DNA of 64,000 nt from an uncultured Candidatus Saccharibacteria bacterium (GCA_964601615.1 CAZRNZ010000001.1:71658-135657); one strand, 5' to 3'; positions 14,720 to 35,515 are shown, counted from the first letter of the stretch. A program made the numbers and translations. The notes: generated by a model from the letters alone, not told the origin.

Positions 14720-14849
14720 AATTTAGATATCTTACTTAATTATGATTATAACCAATAAAATTATTAAGATCATAAAGATATAAACAGTCATTGTTTTTCA
14801 TATAAATATTAAGTATTATCAAGGTATATTTACTAGTTAAAATTTATCT

Positions 14850-15737
14850 ATGGAAATAATTCTTTCAATTTTGTCCCCTTTTATCTTGGCAATATTAATT
14901 TGGCTGGTTGCAACTTCCATTTTTATTGTTCGTGGTAAAACAGCGGCTGTGCTTGAGACTTTTGGTAAGCCTCATAAGCATGCACGCCTTTCTGGTTTGC
15001 AATTTAAATACCCGTGGCCATTTACAATCGTGCGTGCCAGGGTAAATCTGCAACTGCAAGAAATTAGAGCTGATGTATCTATTAAGACCAAGGACAATGC
15101 TTTTATGGTTTTGCCAGTTAAAGCACAGTATCGGGCAAGTGATAATCCAGAAGGTGCAGTTAAAGCACATTATGAATTAGAGAATCCTGAAACACAGATT
15201 ACTTCATATGTATTAAATAATGTTCGACAGACTGCTTCTGGAATGGATATGGTGGAACTATACGCTAATCGTGATGCGATGGAGCGTGAGGTACAAGATT
15301 CTCTGAGCGAACGTTTTGCTCGTTATGGTTATGTAATTGAGAATGTTTTGGTTGATGAGCCGCAGCCAAGTGTTGAGGTTCGTGATGCTTTCAATCGTGT
15401 TATTGCCTCTCAAAGATTGAAGGAAGCAGCTGAAAATGAAGCTGCTGCAGAAAGAATCAAGTTAGTAGGAATTGCACAGGCTGAAGCAGAAAGTAAGCGT
15501 CTGCAAGGTGAAGGAATGGCTCAGATGCGTGAAGCTGTAGCAAAAGGTCTTGAACAAGCTATGGCAACAATGACTCGTTCTGGATTAAGTGCTGAGCAAG
15601 CGATAGATTTTCTAAATGAAACTAACCGTCTAGATACAATTACCAATGCTGCCTCAAACGGCAATATGATTGTGGTAGATACGGCTGGAAATAAAAATAT
15701 TATCGATACTATTGCAGCAATAAAAGCAGTTAAATAG
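14850..15737 (+). CDS. SPFH/band-7 (stomatin/prohibitin-like) membrane protein
   Basis: N-terminal TM helix, then an SPFH domain and an Ala/Glu-rich coiled-coil tail. Confidence 0.8.
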   Translation: MEIILSILSPFILAILIWLVATSIFIVRGKTAAVLETFGKPHKHARLSGLQFKYPWPFTIVRARVNLQLQEIRADVSIKTKDNAFMVLPVKAQYRASDNPEGAVKAHYELENPETQITSYVLNNVRQTASGMDMVELYANRDAMEREVQDSLSERFARYGYVIENVLVDEPQPSVEVRDAFNRVIASQRLKEAAENEAAAERIKLVGIAQAEAESKRLQGEGMAQMREAVAKGLEQAMATMTRSGLSAEQAIDFLNETNRLDTITNAASNGNMIVVDTAGNKNIIDTIAAIKAVK

Positions 15738-27397: not shown

Positions 27398-27420
27398 TTT
27401 ATTCACTTACGTAAGATAAA

Positions 27421-27456
27421 ACAAAAACCAGCGCCCTTCGGGCGCTGGTTTTTGTT
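27421..27456. terminator. terminator AAAAACCAGCGCCC-TTC-GGGCGCTGGTTTTTG
   Basis: Bidirectional, between convergent genes. Confidence 0.8.
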
Positions 27457-27472
27457 TTAATTATTTACTTGC

Positions 27473-27892
27473 CTATCTATTTCTCCAACAAGAAACTGCA
27501 ATAATAATTAATGAGATGAAGAAAAATAATCCGTATGTAAAAAGTATCAAAAATGGCACGATACTTATGTTAGGACCAAAACCACTGCCACGACCCCCCA
27601 TGACTATGGCTATATAAGTCAAAAATACAGTCAGTGGAGTTGCCCAGAAGGCAAACTTTTTCCAAGATTCAAATACTTTTGAATCTAATGGGTATGTAAT
27701 GAGTGAGGTGATTAAAAAAAGTATCGAAGGCCAAAAAGTAATCTTACCGATGTTGCCAATTAGTGACCAATTATCCCTACACCAAAGGTCATCATTACGA
27801 CCGCATGTTTCCTGAATTATTACTGCACCCATTGGTATTACTAAGAATAATAAACTTAGTAAAAATATTTTTTTCTTGGATAAAAATTTCAT
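27473..27892 (-). CDS. integral membrane protein (4 TM), co-operonic with the large secreted protein
   Basis: 139 aa. 4-nt spacer after the upstream 1035-aa gene. Confidence 0.45.
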   Translation of the reverse strand: MKFLSKKKIFLLSLLFLVIPMGAVIIQETCGRNDDLWCRDNWSLIGNIGKITFWPSILFLITSLITYPLDSKVFESWKKFAFWATPLTVFLTYIAIVMGGRGSGFGPNISIVPFLILFTYGLFFFISLIIIAVSCWRNR

Positions 27893-27896
27893 AACA

Positions 27897-30800
27897 TTAT
27901 TTTATACCTTGCTGTGCCTGTAGTAGTGTTATCAGTGTGTTTAGTATTGTTTGTAATTGGATTTTAATATTACTGTGCTGTTCTTTTGATATTTGATTTT
28001 CTAGTGAAGATAGAAATACTGTAATGGTTTGAATTTTTATTACCATATCAGTTAATTCTTTTAAATTAAGAGAAGTTTCTAAATTGTAAGGCTGTTTTTT
28101 GAAGTAGCCACTAGAAAAAGTCTTTTTTATAGACGAATCTGCAACTATAATGTCTGGTACTAGCACTGTTTGTCCTAATATCGGTGTATAATTCAAATCA
28201 ACAATGAAGTCACCATTATAATCGACTTCTAATATCCCGGCATTTTCTAGTTCATTTGTATTGAATTCTATGCTGGCAATTGTTGAAGTGCTAGTAGGTA
28301 TTGCTGAAAATGTACTACTAGCTATTATTTCATCATCTTCAAATTCTTTCATCTCTAGTGTGAAAGATCCCTCAGATTCACCTTTTAAAACAACTGTAAA
28401 TTTTATTCCTTTAGGAATGCTCAGTGTCTGCACCTCGCCATAGCGGGTGTAGATTGCACCGGGGATTGAAGAAGATTCTTTCCCTGTGATGTTTCCATTT
28501 TCATCAATGGCGGAAAGAGAAAGAGGAGAATGTAGAGTAAAGTTTAGACGGTCTGCACCCTCTATCTTCGGCACGTTTTCTAAAATATTTTCTGGTAAAA
28601 AATCTGAATTCTTGGTTAAGAGGTTATTAAGAATGAACGTTCGTAGTTCGTTTATTTCTAGTATGTCAGCATGTTTTGTTCGAAGAAAATCTAAACCTGG
28701 TATAGATTTGATAATGGTATTGTTATAATCTTGTAAGTTTACCCACCACCTATTAACATCTGGGTCTGAGTCGCTCATTGCCAAAGCGCTTGGTACAACC
28801 ACAGTACCGTCACCATCTAATACTATATTTGGTTCGTATGACAATGTATCTTCATATGTTTTGCATACAAATAATATATGAGACTTACATTTCTTTATGG
28901 TTTTATAGGTTATTCCAGCTAATGTTTGTTCACCTATGCCTGCAATTTGGTGTATCTCAATTCCTTCTGGCGGTTGCCAAGTCGAATTGATGCCTTGCTG
29001 AAAATTTTGAGCCTCTGATAAAAGTCCACTGTTTGCGAGAGATAAGTTATTTAAATCTTCATAACTAGGAGTACTTCGCCCCTCTTCTCCTGTAAGAAAA
29101 TCAAACAGTTCTCCAGAGGTTATTGCATAACCGTAATTATCAATAAAATTTTGTGTAGCTGATCCGTCTTCAAAGGTTACGTATGGTATTCCTATGGTTG
29201 CACCTGCACTATTGTAATAATCAGAAAAAGGCATTAATTGATAAATCATCGGCATATTTATCGCCAAATCTCTGGCACGAGATTCGGTTAGAACAAGTGG
29301 AAGATCAGTAGGTTTGCCAGCCTCATACCCATGCAGTAATGCACCAATAGCTTGGGGTGTGCCGAGTTGTGGTACTGCCACCAAAATAACTTTATCTATT
29401 AGTATAGATGCTTCATCTCCTAGTTTATTTATCAGGGCTTTGGTCAATAAGCCGCCATTAGAGTGTGCAACTATAGTCACCTTGCCAGATTTAGAACTTG
29501 CAGCCAATTCACGTAGAGTTTTTTCAATATATGGCTTGTTAGTAGAATTTCCATATTTAATAGTGTCGTCATTTTGTTTTGTTCCAGTATTTAATATGTC
29601 TGCGATAGAGAGACGCCAATCATACGGTACTGCCTCATAGTCATTTATAGTATTCGATGATTTAAGTGCATTTAAATCATTGATTAGTTTTTCGTATGCG
29701 TAATGATTGTCGAGTACATCTTTTGTAACTATGTTTGAATTTATACTATTTCCAGTTTCATCTAAATACAGCTTTTCAAACTCGCTGTCTCTAGTTAGTA
29801 GATTTGGTTCCCATATTTGATTATCACCCTCGTAAAGTCTTGAAGCCATGATTCCTGGCAGGAACATAATGTTAGAGTGGCAATCTATCTCGCAAAATTC
29901 AATGAGCCAAGGAGTGTAATATACATTGTCAGTAATCATATCTCCTGCACCTTGTGGATTTGTTGTTTCATGCTGTGGGCCACTTCTGTCACCCCAAAAA
30001 TTGTTTGAAGCATATATTGGTCCCGAACTATAAGCTTGTGCACCAATACTGTTTCCGCTTATGTGACTGTTGTTGATATTTAGTTGTCCATAATTAGCAA
30101 GTCCAATAGAATTATTTAAAATTTTACTATCTAATATCCCCGCCCTGCTTGCATAGTTGGCTATTCCATATCCAGAATTGTCTGTTATATCTAGATTTTT
30201 TCCATTAAGTATAGACTCGTTATATGTTACTAAACCATCACCTTTAAAATTATTTATCTTTGTATTTTTTATATCCAGTTCTGATTCACTAACAATAATG
30301 CCTTCTCCATCTCCACTTGTTAGTTCAGAGTCTTTTATTTGTACTGTACTGCTACTATATATAGCGATACCTGAGGATCTTGAATTTTCTATTAGAATAT
30401 TTTTTATATCAAGAATGCTGCCACTCGATAATATTCCACTTTTAATTGCTTCAATATTTTCTAAAGATGCATTGCTATCTAGTATTAAGATAGGATTAGA
30501 TTCTTCTACTTTTGAATCTCTTATAGACAAAATACTTCTATCTATAATCAAGGAATTATTATTTCTATAAAAGTAAGAGTCAGATATTGATAAAAAGCCA
30601 TTAATAACCTGTAGCCCATCTCTAGAATAAGAAGTTATTGTATTTGATATATTATTGCCACTAGAATTTAAGATTACAACACTCCAGGGATGGATCTCAT
30701 TATCGTTTGCGTTAGAGGTAAGATGAATCTTACTCTCCTTTGTTCCATTAGCAGTTAATTTGCCTGTCACTGCCAACCAGGTATCTGATTCGAATTTAAT

Positions 30801-31004
30801 CGTAACACCAGGCTCTATTGTTAGGTCTGCCGGACTATCTTCAGTACCTACAACAATTTGTTGTGTAATTATGTAAGGACTACCAGCTAAAGACCAGGTG
30901 GTGTCACCTTCTATGTTTCCAGATATTTCGGTTGCTCCAAGGGCAATCTGGCCGGCACTTAGGAGTGCTACGAACATGGCAATAGATATTCGCCATTTAT
31001 TCAT
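27897..31004 (-). CDS. large secreted multidomain protein: N-terminal right-handed parallel beta-helix repeats, central alpha/beta-hydrolase (lipase/PGAP1-like), C-terminal coiled coil
   Basis: Signal peptide MNKWRISIAMFVALLSAGQIALGA. PbH1-like repeats (NSGYGIANYASRAGILDSKILNNSIGLANYGQLNINNSHISGNSIGAQAY). Lipase nucleophile-elbow-like motif VTIVAHSNGGLL (GHSxG-type) preceded by FLPGIMASRL. Confidence 0.7.
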   Translation of the reverse strand: MNKWRISIAMFVALLSAGQIALGATEISGNIEGDTTWSLAGSPYIITQQIVVGTEDSPADLTIEPGVTIKFESDTWLAVTGKLTANGTKESKIHLTSNANDNEIHPWSVVILNSSGNNISNTITSYSRDGLQVINGFLSISDSYFYRNNNSLIIDRSILSIRDSKVEESNPILILDSNASLENIEAIKSGILSSGSILDIKNILIENSRSSGIAIYSSSTVQIKDSELTSGDGEGIIVSESELDIKNTKINNFKGDGLVTYNESILNGKNLDITDNSGYGIANYASRAGILDSKILNNSIGLANYGQLNINNSHISGNSIGAQAYSSGPIYASNNFWGDRSGPQHETTNPQGAGDMITDNVYYTPWLIEFCEIDCHSNIMFLPGIMASRLYEGDNQIWEPNLLTRDSEFEKLYLDETGNSINSNIVTKDVLDNHYAYEKLINDLNALKSSNTINDYEAVPYDWRLSIADILNTGTKQNDDTIKYGNSTNKPYIEKTLRELAASSKSGKVTIVAHSNGGLLTKALINKLGDEASILIDKVILVAVPQLGTPQAIGALLHGYEAGKPTDLPLVLTESRARDLAINMPMIYQLMPFSDYYNSAGATIGIPYVTFEDGSATQNFIDNYGYAITSGELFDFLTGEEGRSTPSYEDLNNLSLANSGLLSEAQNFQQGINSTWQPPEGIEIHQIAGIGEQTLAGITYKTIKKCKSHILFVCKTYEDTLSYEPNIVLDGDGTVVVPSALAMSDSDPDVNRWWVNLQDYNNTIIKSIPGLDFLRTKHADILEINELRTFILNNLLTKNSDFLPENILENVPKIEGADRLNFTLHSPLSLSAIDENGNITGKESSSIPGAIYTRYGEVQTLSIPKGIKFTVVLKGESEGSFTLEMKEFEDDEIIASSTFSAIPTSTSTIASIEFNTNELENAGILEVDYNGDFIVDLNYTPILGQTVLVPDIIVADSSIKKTFSSGYFKKQPYNLETSLNLKELTDMVIKIQTITVFLSSLENQISKEQHSNIKIQLQTILNTLITLLQAQQGIK

Positions 31005-31080
31005 TAACCAGTTTTGATGAATTTATTATAACCTATAATAATTGTATTTTGTGTGCTTTTCCCATACAATCATTAGCATT

Positions 31081-32385
31081 ATGGCTGAAAAACTATCGAC
31101 AGAACCCTATAAAGGGGTAAGGGACTTTTATCCAGAGGATATGGCTATCCAACAGCATATTTTTGATGTTTGGAGCAAAACTGCGGAGTCTTTTGGTTTT
31201 CAGCGTTACGATGCTTCTGTGCTTGAACCTTCTGAACTATATAAGAGTAAGGGTGCCGAAAATGAAGAGTTGGTAAATGAACAAACATATACTTTTTTGG
31301 ATCGTGGAAATCGTGAGGTTACTTTGCGTCCAGAGATGACCCCTACTGTCGCTCGTATGATCGCGTCTCGCCACAAAGAGCTTTCCTTCCCTGCTCGATG
31401 GTATTCAATTCCAAACTTGTTTAGGTATGAAAGAGCACAGCGCGGACGTGTGCGTGAACACTGGCAGTTGAACTGTGATATGTTCGGTTCTAATGATATT
31501 TCTTCTGATGTTGAAATGATTAGTCTTGCTCACAGTATATTGATTAATTTTGGTGCAAATCCAGAGATGTTTACAATTAAAGTTAATCATAAAAGATTAG
31601 CTGCGGAAGTTATTGACTACAATGTTAAAAAGGCTGGTTATTCAATTACTGAAGATCAGATTAATAAGGTTATAAGACTTACTGATAAAATTGAAAAAAT
31701 AGCTCCTAAGGACTTTGAAAGAATGATGACTGAAATAGTTGGTGAGGGAGTATCTAGTTCTGTTATGGAAATTTATAGTGAGGATAGAGAAGGTTTTCTG
31801 GATAGTGTCCACAAGACTGACTCACTTGAGAGATTACTTGAAATAATGAGGTCTTTAAGAGAAATGGGTATAAAAATTGAATACGATCCAACATTGGTTA
31901 GAGGGTTTGATTACTATACAGGGCTTATTTTTGAGATTTTTGATAACAATCCAAATAATAATCGTTCAATGCTTGGCGGTGGTCGCTATGACAACCTCAC
32001 TTCCCTTTTTGGAGACGAAGCTATTGGTGGGATTGGTTTTGGTATGGGTGATGTCACCATGAGAGATTTCTTGGAAACTCACGACTTGTTGCCACGACTT
32101 TCTAATAGTGCTTCTGTAGTAGTAATTCCGACAGAAGCATCACTTAATCTCGAGGCAGAAAAAGTAGCTCGTTCACTCCGAAAAATTGACTTATCAGTCA
32201 TGGTGGATATTTCTACTCGTAAGCTTGGTAAGAAGATTGCTAGTGCTGATTCTTCTGGTGCTGGTTATGTTTTGATTGTGGGAGAAGATGAGGTTACTCG
32301 CAATGAATTTGTTTTAAAAAACTTAGCTGATGGCACTGAGACTTCTGGTACAATTGAGCGTCTGGCTGAACAGTTTGTTGGTTAG
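31081..32385 (+). CDS. hisS: histidine--tRNA ligase
   Basis: Class II motifs FRYERAQRGRVREHWQ and GGGRYD. ATG at 31081 gives MAEKLSTEPYKGVRDF; the track ORF starts 13 codons upstream. Confidence 0.9.
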   Translation: MAEKLSTEPYKGVRDFYPEDMAIQQHIFDVWSKTAESFGFQRYDASVLEPSELYKSKGAENEELVNEQTYTFLDRGNREVTLRPEMTPTVARMIASRHKELSFPARWYSIPNLFRYERAQRGRVREHWQLNCDMFGSNDISSDVEMISLAHSILINFGANPEMFTIKVNHKRLAAEVIDYNVKKAGYSITEDQINKVIRLTDKIEKIAPKDFERMMTEIVGEGVSSSVMEIYSEDREGFLDSVHKTDSLERLLEIMRSLREMGIKIEYDPTLVRGFDYYTGLIFEIFDNNPNNNRSMLGGGRYDNLTSLFGDEAIGGIGFGMGDVTMRDFLETHDLLPRLSNSASVVVIPTEASLNLEAEKVARSLRKIDLSVMVDISTRKLGKKIASADSSGAGYVLIVGEDEVTRNEFVLKNLADGTETSGTIERLAEQFVG

Positions 32386-33123: not shown

Positions 33124-33882
33124 ATGGGTAACATTGTGAGCCAAATATCACGAGGTCAGGGTCATGAGCTTTTGAATAAGCTAGAAAGCGCTGGCCTTAC
33201 TCCAGAACTTGCTCAAAGGATCGTTGATTCTAAAGGAAATACAGCGGCCAAGAAAATGGTTGAGAGTATCAAAGGAGGGTTTACTACCTATAAAAAAGCG
33301 CGCGGCATTATGGGTAGAAACTTTTTTGGTACTGAGGATATGCTTTTTTATTTCAAAGGCTATTCTTGTACCAAGGAAGATATTAACTTTTTTGCTGAAG
33401 TTCCTTGGAGTGAGGATGTTTTGGAATCATGTAAAGATACTCATGTTTTAGTAGCGGTTCCGTCTGTATCTATCCACTATATTCAACAGTTGACAAGTTT
33501 AGAAGATATTTTTCATACTTCTGTAAATAATAATAGTCTTTACAAAGATTTTGTTCACAATCGTTGCATGGCTAGTTGGCAGCTTATAAAAAAGATACCA
33601 GTAACATGGTCAGAAGATAAGAATTATAGTGACCAACTAAAGGTTCTTTATCCAGATGAAGAGGTGCCAAGTGTTCAAGTTGTTGTTTATGCAATGGTCG
33701 GTCACTTCTTGAAAACAAAAGAAAGACTGTTTCGTGAAATTTCAGTCCGGACGTCAACGGTTGACTCAATTGGTCAATCTGTTGCTGTAGGTCACTTTAA
33801 CTCAAATGGCATGATTATTGGGTCATATGGTGACGGTCAGGTTTCTAATTTGGCTCTGGCTTCAGCCAAGAAGTTGATGTAA
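33124..33882 (+). CDS. hypothetical protein (252 aa)
   Basis: ORF with no recognised domain. Its leader (33060-33123) contains two hairpins. Terminator AGCCCCGCAA..TTGCGGGGCT plus T-run at 33888-33924. Confidence 0.45.
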   Translation: MGNIVSQISRGQGHELLNKLESAGLTPELAQRIVDSKGNTAAKKMVESIKGGFTTYKKARGIMGRNFFGTEDMLFYFKGYSCTKEDINFFAEVPWSEDVLESCKDTHVLVAVPSVSIHYIQQLTSLEDIFHTSVNNNSLYKDFVHNRCMASWQLIKKIPVTWSEDKNYSDQLKVLYPDEEVPSVQVVVYAMVGHFLKTKERLFREISVRTSTVDSIGQSVAVGHFNSNGMIIGSYGDGQVSNLALASAKKLM

Positions 33883-33935: not shown

Positions 33936-34751
33936 TTATTGTGAAGCTATTACTAAAAGTATTACTATGCTAGCTAAAACAATACGGTACCAAATAAATG
34001 GCCAAAGGCTATATTTGCGGACGAATGAAAGCATAAAATGAATAGCGAATAATCCAGCCAAGAAAGCAATTGTGGCAGCAATTATCAAACTTCCCCAGTC
34101 AAAAGAATTATTTAGGGACATCAAATCAACTAGCTTTTTGGCACCACTTCCAGCAATGATTGGAATTGCTAACAAGAAAGAAAAGCGAGCTGCTTCAGAA
34201 CGAGTAAGCCCCATCATCATTCCTCCCACTATTGAAGCACCACTTCGCGACATGCCAGGCAAAAGTGCTAAACATTGAAAGAGACCAATCTTAAATCCTT
34301 TTTGAATTGTCATTTTTTCATCTCTTGGATTATTGGTGTAGTGCCATTCAGCAAACATGAATAAGATAGACCCAAGAATTAAAATTACTCCGACAAATAA
34401 TGGATTGCGAAAAATCGTTTCCATATATGACTCAAGGAATAGTCCCATTATGACAGCAGGAATTGTACCTATCATCAGTGCGTAAGCCAATGTGATTTCT
34501 TTTTGATTTACTGGTAGGCGGGACATTTTACGTAGAACAGCATTTGTCATTGTTAGTAAATCTTTATGAAAATAAATTATTACTGCCAAAACTGTCGCGA
34601 GTTGTAGTACGGCATCAAAGGCTAAATCATTCTCGCTAGCTCCCAAAAATGAGTGTAAAAGCACTAAATGGCCTGTAGATGATACTGGTAAAAATTCCGT
34701 AAAGCCTTGTAGTAGGCCAAAAAATATACTGTTTACAGCTTCCATTGCCAA
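33936..34751 (-). CDS. uppP: undecaprenyl-diphosphatase
   Basis: GFTEFLPVSSTGHLVL and PGMSRSGASI motifs; 8 TM helices. Confidence 0.85.
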   Translation of the reverse strand: MAMEAVNSIFFGLLQGFTEFLPVSSTGHLVLLHSFLGASENDLAFDAVLQLATVLAVIIYFHKDLLTMTNAVLRKMSRLPVNQKEITLAYALMIGTIPAVIMGLFLESYMETIFRNPLFVGVILILGSILFMFAEWHYTNNPRDEKMTIQKGFKIGLFQCLALLPGMSRSGASIVGGMMMGLTRSEAARFSFLLAIPIIAGSGAKKLVDLMSLNNSFDWGSLIIAATIAFLAGLFAIHFMLSFVRKYSLWPFIWYRIVLASIVILLVIASQ

Positions 34752-34780
34752 ATATTATATCATGGTAAAATATTGGTTAT

Positions 34781-35515
34781 ATGAATGATATAAACCAAAG
34801 TCAGACTTCTAGAAATAACAACGGTAGTTCTTTGGCTATTCCAATTGCTATTGTAGTTGGTTTTGGCCTAATTGCTTCTGCTATTTATTTTGGAGATTCT
34901 GGAAAAAAAGTTGTCGATATACAGAATAATCAAGGTCAGCAACAGCAAGCTAATTTAGAAGCAATTAATCCAATTACAGCCGAGGATCATATCAAGGGAA
35001 ATCCAAATGCTGAAATAGTAATTGTTGAATATTCTGATTTTGATTGTCCTTTCTGTCGTAATTTCCATACTACTTTGAATAAGGTTATGGATGAATATGG
35101 AGCAACTGGAAAAGTTGCTTGGGTTTATCGTCACTTCCCTCTAACTTCATTGCATCCAAGTGCAGCTCATATTGCTGAAGCTTCTGAGTGTGTGGCTGAG
35201 CTTGGTGGTACAGATGCTTTCTGGACTTTCTCTGATCTAGTATTTATGGAGAGAGGTACCAACGAGCCAACTAATATTGCTCGTTTGCCGGAGTTTGCTA
35301 CAACCGCTGGTGTTAATGCTGATGATTTTAAATCTTGTCTTGATAGTGGAAGAAATAAACCAAAGGTTGTGGAAGACTTCAATAACGCTGTTGCAATCGG
35401 TGGCACAGGTACTCCTCATTCGATAATTATTGCTGGTGATCAAAAGTTTGTTATCGAAGGTGGTGCACAGCCTTACGAGGTTGTTAAATCTTTGATTGAT
35501 GGTTTGTTGGAATAG
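34781..35515 (+). CDS. DsbA-like thiol:disulfide oxidoreductase (thioredoxin fold, CPFC)
   Basis: N-terminal TM anchor; EYSDFDCPFCRNFH. Confidence 0.75.
   Translation: MNDINQSQTSRNNNGSSLAIPIAIVVGFGLIASAIYFGDSGKKVVDIQNNQGQQQQANLEAINPITAEDHIKGNPNAEIVIVEYSDFDCPFCRNFHTTLNKVMDEYGATGKVAWVYRHFPLTSLHPSAAHIAEASECVAELGGTDAFWTFSDLVFMERGTNEPTNIARLPEFATTAGVNADDFKSCLDSGRNKPKVVEDFNNAVAIGGTGTPHSIIIAGDQKFVIEGGAQPYEVVKSLIDGLLE

Follow-up and report, generated by a model that had tools for sequence, protein, structure and literature searches.

A bicistronic module of Patescibacteria: a predicted exported LCAT/LPLA2-type enzyme and its four-helix membrane partner

The window examined here is a 64,000-nucleotide stretch of DNA from an uncultured Candidatus Saccharibacteria bacterium (GCA_964601615.1 CAZRNZ010000001.1:71658-135657). 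On its minus strand lie two adjacent genes, one for a 1035-amino-acid (aa) secreted protein with a hydrolase domain resembling those of lecithin:cholesterol acyltransferase (LCAT) and lysosomal phospholipase A2 (LPLA2), and one for a 139-aa membrane protein. The same pairing recurs in related genomes, and we examined both proteins, their families and their gene neighbourhoods to consider what the pair may do. The operon consists of the following features.

27897..31004, minus strand: gene for the 1035-aa secreted modular LCAT/LPLA2-like hydrolase (open reading frame (ORF) with an ATG start; Pfam Beta_helix and LCAT matches above the gathering score)
27473..27892, minus strand: gene for the 139-aa four-helix membrane partner (ORF with an ATG start; four helices in the AlphaFold2 (AF2) model)
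27417..27459, strand not assigned: hairpin terminator with a 20-bp stem and a GC-rich core, which closes the bicistronic operon and lies between convergent genes

The two genes are separated by 4 nt, with the junction TAA-tgtt-ATG, an arrangement that an earlier reading of this DNA (the sequence-only reading) had already described together with the four transmembrane (TM) helices of the smaller product. On the minus strand, a T-run follows directly past the terminator stem. GC content in the window is low (0.34-0.44) and the gene content is dense and of housekeeping type. The genes flanking the pair are housekeeping genes unrelated to it: hisS, an exonuclease, UppP and a DsbA-like thioredoxin on one flank, and a bPH_2 membrane protein, a HemK-like methyltransferase, an ABC-2 transporter and a class I aldolase on the other. 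Given the junction, the terminator and these unrelated flanking genes, the two genes form a bicistronic operon. The 139-aa partner is probably co-transcribed with the enzyme and translationally coupled to it.

The 1035-aa protein is built from five parts: a Sec signal peptide, a right-handed beta-helix, an alpha/beta-hydrolase of the LCAT/LPLA2 type, a beta-sandwich and a helical hairpin. Positions in the AF2 model, given below with the predicted local distance difference test (pLDDT) score, refer to an alignment-based model of aa 365-1035 (pLDDT 90.3, predicted template modelling score 0.85).

30933..31004, minus strand: Sec-type signal peptide, aa 1 to ~24 (n/h/c pattern, aligned in homologs)
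29895..30932, minus strand: right-handed parallel beta-helix module, aa ~25-370 (Pfam PF13229)
28605..29882, minus strand: LCAT/LPLA2-type alpha/beta-hydrolase, aa ~375-800 (Pfam LCAT, AF2, Foldseek)
28170..28562, minus strand: conserved C-terminal beta-sandwich, aa ~815-945 (AF2 strands at model positions 455-575, pLDDT >90)
27915..28064, minus strand: lineage-specific C-terminal helical hairpin, aa 981-1030 (AF2 helices at model positions 617-636 and 643-666, pLDDT ~85)

At the N-terminus, MNKWRISIAMFVALLSAGQIALG/ATE shows the n/h/c arrangement typical of Sec signal peptides, which homologs retain. The predicted peptide has a basic n-region, a hydrophobic h-region (Kyte-Doolittle peak at aa 6-24) and a c-region of the A-x-G/A type, and it contains no lipobox Cys. 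The beta-helix that follows matched Pfam Beta_helix (PF13229) in two stretches, the best at aa 157-300, with 70.5 bits against a cutoff of 25.9 (E 1.7e-19), and it terminates in a conserved N-x-WGD...GP...PWL cap. The hydrolase matched LCAT (PF02450) over aa 456-740 with 57.4 bits against a cutoff of 21 (E 1.9e-15), covering profile positions 87-355 of 392, and homologs likewise matched this family; weaker matches of the window protein were to the related lipase families DUF7379, DUF900, DUF676 and Palm_thioest. NCBIfam gave no match for the protein, and neither did a single-sequence search of the PDB.

Fold comparison was more informative for the hydrolase. In the AF2 model, the alpha/beta-hydrolase carries large insertions where the membrane-binding and cap domains would be expected, and the cap-like insertion is itself large, including a long beta-hairpin at ~aa 683-728. 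The top Foldseek matches in the PDB were human LPLA2 (4x97/4x90; E 1.7e-12, probability 1.0, target-normalised template modelling score 0.65-0.68), followed by LCAT (5txf/4xwg; E 2.6e-9) and then by the Bacillus lipase BlEst2 and the Legionella phospholipase PlaB. Across the whole domain, similarity to LPLA2 and LCAT was found with probability 1.0 and target-normalised scores of 0.58-0.68. The signal peptide, the beta-helix repeats and the lipase-like hydrolase of the sequence-only reading thus all stand: the first is supported by its conserved pattern, the other two by Pfam matches above cutoff, and the lipase by the fold search as well.

The part after the lipase motifs had been read as about 350 uncharacterised residues and a terminal coiled coil, and here our results differ. 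The region comprises the remainder of the hydrolase up to His778, with its cap-like insertion, then a beta-sandwich of ~125 aa (aa ~819-939 in the AF2 model) and a disordered linker (aa 956-977) preceding the helices. The supposed coiled coil is the helical hairpin at aa 981-1030, which is not conserved in the family. The beta-sandwich had no Pfam match; it holds an invariant LHSP motif and a D-x-N/D-G-D motif. H825, S826 and P827 were invariant in 24 sequences and S826 in 80 of 80, and G856, F881 and D928 were invariant in both sets.

Conservation of the presumed active site was read in the same alignments of 24 and 80 homologs, which are 29-64% identical to the 1035-aa query.

29853..29864, minus strand: FLPG segment, aa 381-384 (F381, P383 and G384 invariant in the 24 and 80 sequences)
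29613..29624, minus strand: YDWR motif, aa 461-464 (invariant in the 24 and 80 sequences)
29460..29462, minus strand: predicted nucleophile Ser515 in VAHSNGG (invariant in 80 sequences; codon verified)
28809..28811, minus strand: predicted catalytic Asp732 in DGDGTV (G731 and D732 invariant)
28671..28673, minus strand: predicted catalytic His778 in KHADIL (invariant in 80 sequences)

The VAHSNGG elbow and the FLPGIMASRL segment (aa 381-390), both picked out beforehand, are present and their key residues do not vary. In the elbow, H514, S515, G517 and G518 were invariant in the 80 sequences, and N516 was invariant in the 24 and nearly so in the 80. We take FLPG to be the strand-turn of the oxyanion hole, a role assumed by analogy with the LCAT family; the segment aligns with FIPGIMG of Tle4 (PDB 4r1d). 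YDWR presumably corresponds to the motif of LCAT and LPLA2 sequences. The family profile aligned the Asp732 stretch weakly with LPLA2 residues 323-347. A Ser-Asp-His triad had been named in advance as the check on the hydrolase assignment, and S515, D732 and H778 were invariant in all 80 homologs. Invariance of the Ser, Asp and His, of the GxSxG-type elbow and of FLPG across these sequences implies selection for catalysis, and the enzyme looks catalytically competent.

The same residues bear on a non-catalytic alternative, in which the protein would be an adhesin or surface-layer protein that retains a hydrolase-like fold: a large secreted protein with a beta-helix, a beta-sandwich and variable termini would fit it, but triad, elbow and FLPG do not vary in 80 sequences that share only 33-64% identity with the query, and we regard this explanation, including the pure adhesin of the sequence-only reading, as very improbable.

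The protein contains exactly four Cys, in the pairs C371/C375 and C706/C714, and the pairs are kept in 57-78% of the family. The signal peptide and the two conserved Cys pairs fit an extracytoplasmic, disulfide-bonded protein. A DsbA-like thioredoxin gene with an N-terminal hydrophobic segment lies near the module, where it adjoins the undecaprenyl-diphosphatase (BacA/UppP) gene (33936-35515). Extracytoplasmic disulfide formation would therefore be available for the Cys pairs of both module proteins.

Relatives of the enzyme are numerous. Protein searches gave more than 240 homologs among the matches listed, the best being 52% identical over the full length. Named homologs came nearly all from metagenome-assembled genomes (MAGs) of Patescibacteria, also called the candidate phyla radiation (CPR): Kaiserbacteria, Paceibacterota, Lloydbacteria and Pacebacteria. 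One homologous MAG protein was labelled Candidatus Methylomirabilis. A genomic scan of one genome per GTDB species yielded at least 550 relatives, of which the best 80 were taken into the locus analyses; the named loci among these 80 were again nearly all from Patescibacteria. Some co-assembly MAGs bear the labels 'Saccharibacteria' and 'Bdellovibrionales', which call for caution. A collection of 15 billion proteins contains the exact 1035-aa protein; the homology search gave no self match because a 50-aa fragment stands for its 90% cluster.

Across the family, the constant part is the hydrolase together with the beta-sandwich. The N-terminal module differs among relatives and may be beta-helix/NosD, MBG, Ig-like, CHB_HEX_C, PxKF or none. 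We read the beta-helix of the window protein as an accessory or targeting domain, because other family members carry different modules in its place. At least five unrelated kinds of C-terminal tail occur: the helical hairpin of the window protein, an aromatic amphipathic helix, a beta-domain ending in ...KGxVxIxY, a PxKF-type domain and, in at least six loci, a hydrophobic TM helix. With tails this diverse, a role for the C-terminal helical tail as the element that docks the partner was rejected. Such a pattern, in which the catalytic core stays fixed while the surface-binding ends are exchanged and the protein is sometimes self-anchored, is expected of a cell-surface enzyme aimed at variable external targets.

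This variability also bears on whether the enzyme acts on glycans. As a polysaccharide or cell-wall esterase, it would bind or cleave a glycan through its beta-helix and remove acyl or acetyl esters with its hydrolase, and modules of the beta-helix/NosD and CHB_HEX_C types are indeed typical of glycan-active proteins. However, many members do without the beta-helix whereas the LCAT-like core does not change, the closest folds belong to enzymes that act at lipid interfaces (LPLA2, LCAT, lipases and PlaB) rather than to carbohydrate esterases, and the obligate membrane partner would be left unexplained. We therefore consider a glycan esterase improbable.

To assess the pairing, six-frame ORFs from the 80 loci were searched with phmmer and jackhmmer. 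These loci hold 82 genes of the lipase family, 13 of which reach a contig end and were hence not evaluable. A gene of the small family lies directly downstream, on the same strand, in 67 of the 69 that remain, so the conserved pairing with a membrane protein expected by the sequence-only reading holds. Of the two without a partner, one is a split gene (L063) and the other is followed by rplJ and rplL (L069). The gap between the genes is mostly -40 to +42 nt, often a 4-nt overlap of stop and start codons. When flanking ORFs were clustered, none besides the partner recurred in more than 12 of the 80 loci, and a wider conserved operon was rejected on this ground.

Copy number varies in both genes. 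One MAG has a tandem duplication of the complete pair (L077, 2321-9829), and in other MAGs two pairs sit on separate contigs (L004/L016 and L040/L041). Seven loci have extra small-family genes beside a single lipase gene (L052, L025, L031, L036, L041, L043 and L004); there are four small-family copies in L052 (6503-12134). In L004, an orphan small-family copy (14752-15162) lies ~3 kb downstream, behind two unannotated ORFs of ~360 aa that resemble an insertion. The partner is retained even where the enzyme has a C-terminal TM anchor of its own.

A similar layout was seen outside this family. Two phage-like IMG/VR contigs (L081:4815-8232 and L082:4998-8204) carry lipase-like ORFs of 872-944 aa, which come right after holin-like and endolysin-like ORFs. 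Their identity to aa 377-620 of the window protein is 28-29%, and they share the (F)IPGI(K)G start. Each is followed directly by a 190-195-aa ORF with three TM helices, for which homology to the small family was ruled out (hhalign probability 0.1%). Since the 3-TM ORF is not homologous to the small family, the layout of a lipase with a small membrane protein may have arisen independently on these contigs.

The 139-aa protein was modelled by AF2 as four helices, at aa 6-32, 36-66, 71-99 and 112-138 (pLDDT 83). Charge counts over 36 and 67 members showed that the N-terminus, loop 2 and the C-terminus are net-positive and loops 1 and 3 net-negative; by the positive-inside rule, this distribution predicts an N-in/C-in topology. 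Loop 1, predicted to lie outside, bears the conserved pair Cys30/Cys38, and the predicted outside loops measure ~20 and 12 residues. Trp77, at the interface, and Ser127, in TM4, are invariant in the small family. The best-conserved stretch is aa 67-86 (Phe74, Trp77 and Pro86), which reads EEVFxAWxxFAxWxxP in most members.

A profile search over 1.84 billion representatives returned 1,487 members of the small family at E<=0.001 and 492 at E<=1e-10, in comparison with a word-indexed protein search with the 139-aa protein, which returned only the protein itself and one homolog. Searches for a known relative were negative: 36 members had only scattered sub-threshold Pfam matches to unrelated families, NCBIfam gave the 139-aa protein a single 12-bit match, far below threshold, and Foldseek found no usable fold match in the PDB for its model (best E 1.1). 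PADLOC matched neither the enzyme nor the 139-aa protein at E up to 0.1. Longer members are extended by two to four TM helices or by a second module copy (P0294, P0296, P0312; P0243-P0255). No soluble domain is fused to any of them, and the idea of a fused domain that would point to a function was thus rejected. Fusions of two 4-TM modules in tandem hint that the unit works as a dimer. The small family is an uncharacterised membrane-protein family whose only known context is the LCAT-like enzyme.

Three roles had been suggested for the small protein: exporter, anchor or immunity factor. An exporter is unlikely and was rejected, as the enzyme has its own Sec signal peptide, and a mere anchor was rejected likewise, as self-anchored enzymes keep the partner. 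Self-protection gains support from the tandem arrays of small genes. The tight 1:1 linkage, the arrays and the orphan copies make the partner resemble immunity genes.

Our favoured reading, held with middling confidence and built on sequence and model comparisons, is that the operon encodes an exported lipid-acting surface enzyme directed against foreign membranes, together with a dedicated small membrane subunit. The enzyme would sit at or near the producer's surface, where its variable modules would bind the envelope of a neighbouring or host cell and its LCAT-like domain would dock on the lipid surface of the foreign membrane. There it would form an acyl-Ser515 intermediate and carry out phospholipase A or transacylase chemistry on the acyl chains of glycerolipids, so that lysolipid and fatty acid would be released or the acyl chain transferred. 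The target membrane would be damaged, and the products would be usable by the lipid-auxotrophic Patescibacterium. The 4-TM partner, made in step with the enzyme, would be its cognate membrane subunit. Its role is most likely self-protection ('immunity-like'), docking or both, sparing the producer's own scavenged membrane; it is less likely to be an acceptor or uptake site for the products. A producer with a surface lipase and a membrane of scavenged host-type lipids would need such protection.

We infer the functional steps beyond catalytic competence, those of docking, acyl-enzyme formation and release or transfer from the behaviour of the LCAT/LPLA2 family. LCAT and LPLA2 are interfacial phospholipases A and transacylases with membrane-binding and cap/lid sub-domains (PMC6277198). 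A surface enzyme that harvests or attacks foreign membrane lipids appears the most likely function because the biology of these bacteria favours a lipid target: Patescibacteria do not synthesise lipids, and the mechanisms by which they take up and break down lipids are unidentified (PMC11665869); lysolipids are plentiful in cell fractions enriched in CPR bacteria and are attributed to neighbours, possibly via phospholipase A (PMC7242380); and a secreted phospholipase has been proposed for a host-lipid role in Vampirococcus (PMC8080830). Among the functions offered by the sequence-only reading, an effector attacking an envelope or a host membrane is the best supported.

Several observations weigh against this reading. 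Similarity to LCAT and LPLA2 is remote, with 12-15% identity in structural alignments, and PDB sequence searches gave no significant match to either. On the partner's side, prediction places the best-conserved segment (aa 67-86) at the cytoplasmic face, and the loops outside are both short (~20 and 12 aa) and variable. Short, variable outside loops and conservation at the cytoplasmic face are unlike a binding inhibitor of an extracellular enzyme. The partner may instead have a docking, substrate-presenting or product-receiving role.

The closest alternative keeps the chemistry and changes its purpose. The pair could be an interbacterial toxin and its immunity protein, with an antibacterial phospholipase serving competition rather than feeding and the 4-TM protein as cognate immunity factor, as in Tle-Tli or bacteriocin-immunity systems. 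Tight linkage of a small downstream gene to the enzyme gene, the arrays and orphan copies of that gene, the polymorphism of both enzyme termini and the presence of several paralogous pairs in some MAGs would all be expected of such a system. Moreover, the sole PDB sequence match of the family profile is a type VI secretion system (T6SS) effector, Tle4/TplE (4r1d), through its FIPGIMG and HSMGG motifs; this match is at motif level only (E 1e-4), and LPLA2 lay far below significance in the same search. However, the conserved neighbourhood contains no secretion-system or other toxin-delivery gene, PADLOC was negative, and the partner has almost no extracytoplasmic mass, with its best-conserved face predicted to be cytoplasmic. 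This explanation is unlikely but deserves serious weight; it overlaps heavily with the favoured one, differs from it in purpose only and is inseparable from it by sequence analysis.

A second alternative turns the enzyme on the producer itself. Here, an exported LCAT-like acyltransferase would remodel the producer's own envelope, by re-acylating scavenged lysolipids or by acting on a surface polymer, and the 4-TM protein would present or flip the lipid. LCAT and LPLA2 are transacylases as well as phospholipases (PMC6277198), lysolipids are abundant in CPR membranes (PMC7242380), and some members are anchored in the producer's own membrane. The partner, too, could be accommodated: its conserved residues are within the membrane or border it (Ser127 in TM4, Trp77 at the interface), and the tandem 4-TM fusions suggest a dimeric membrane unit like that of small transporters. 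In opposition, variable N-terminal modules of carbohydrate-binding type are better suited to the recognition of diverse foreign surfaces, partner arrays and orphan copies are unusual for a housekeeping subunit, and no lipid-metabolism gene is linked to the module. We judge own-envelope remodelling to be somewhat less probable again than a toxin-immunity pair.

A bolder proposal, more doubtful still, makes the pair the missing lipid-acquisition device of Paceibacteria-type CPR. An ATP-free, LCAT-like surface transacylase would move host acyl chains or lysolipids to the symbiont membrane, and the dimeric 4-TM partner would serve as acceptor, flipping or uptake site and as a shield for the bilayer.

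The predicted lipid-acting surface enzyme with its membrane partner is of interest for the biology of these organisms. Patescibacteria make up a large share of bacterial diversity and have no fatty acid or phospholipid synthesis, and field lipidomics indicates that they obtain lysolipids from their neighbours (PMC7242380). The module is a concrete, assayable candidate for the open question of how CPR bacteria acquire lipids: a widespread, self-contained unit of two genes, with an exported LCAT/LPLA2-type enzyme and an obligate, uncharacterised membrane partner. Apart from the lipid question, the analysis defines a new family of small membrane proteins (~1,490 representatives). The LCAT/LPLA2 fold, familiar chiefly from the biology of human lipoproteins and lysosomes, is here extended to a bacterial surface protein of modular build.

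Some observations concern the surroundings of the operon. A TATAAT lies ~20 nt upstream of the ATG of the 1035-aa gene, noted as a sequence observation only. On that side, the hisS ORF as listed (31042-32385, plus strand) begins at a TTG 37 nt from this ATG. The divergent intergenic region between the lipase gene and hisS is probably ~76 nt, because an ATG at 31081 already yields a full-length HisRS Pfam match. Farther along, a 252-aa ORF (33124-33882, plus strand) between the exonuclease-like gene and uppP had no Pfam match at E<=0.001.

The module was compared with four known systems. The first is the LCAT/LPLA2 family itself (PF02450; human PLA2G15/LPLA2 and LCAT), which the window enzyme resembles in fold, Pfam score, Ser-Asp-His triad and AHSxGG elbow, in the insertions where the membrane-binding and cap domains sit and, by prediction, in being an extracellular or luminal, disulfide-bonded enzyme of lipid interfaces. 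It differs in being bacterial (Patescibacteria), in a much larger cap insertion with a long beta-hairpin, and in the addition of an N-terminal beta-helix, a conserved beta-sandwich, a variable tail and an obligate 4-TM partner gene.

Tle4/TplE with Tli4/TplEi (4R1D) shares the GxSxG lipase, the motifs (F/I)PGI(M)G and HS(M/N)GGL and a small adjacent gene, and the membranes of other cells are a plausible target in both. Delivery differs: the window enzyme has a Sec signal, and no neighbour besides the small gene is conserved in the 80 loci, leaving no T6SS linkage. The small proteins differ as well: Tli4 is soluble, resides in the periplasm and binds the cap domain (PMC5611513), but the window partner is a 4-TM bundle for which no homology to known immunity proteins, or to anything else, was detected. 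A T6SS Tle-Tli pair was therefore rejected, given Sec export, the absence of T6SS linkage, similarity at motif level only and an unrelated partner. By analogy, the module may nevertheless work like an effector-immunity pair.

In the LipA-LipB/Lif systems of Pseudomonas and Acinetobacter, a secreted lipase gene is likewise followed by the gene of a membrane-associated helper, and LipA is a distant Foldseek match of the window enzyme (9g8u). Lif has a single TM helix, and its large helical domain in the periplasm wraps around the lipase. A Lif-type foldase was rejected for the partner, which has 139 aa, four TM helices, outside loops of ~12-20 residues and no extracytoplasmic domain.

The last system is Vamp_34_196 of the predator Vampirococcus lugosii, a secreted phospholipase of a CPR bacterium proposed to disrupt the host membrane and supply lipids; it comes from a different CPR lineage (Absconditabacteria), and the passage on it names no protein family and describes no LCAT-like domain or partner gene (PMC8080830). 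A literature search limited to open-access papers and bioRxiv found no description of an LCAT-like enzyme with a 4-TM partner in Patescibacteria. Set beside these systems, the kind of enzyme is known; the novelty lies in the modular architecture of this bacterial form, in the conserved beta-sandwich and chiefly in the obligate pairing with a protein of a new 4-TM family.

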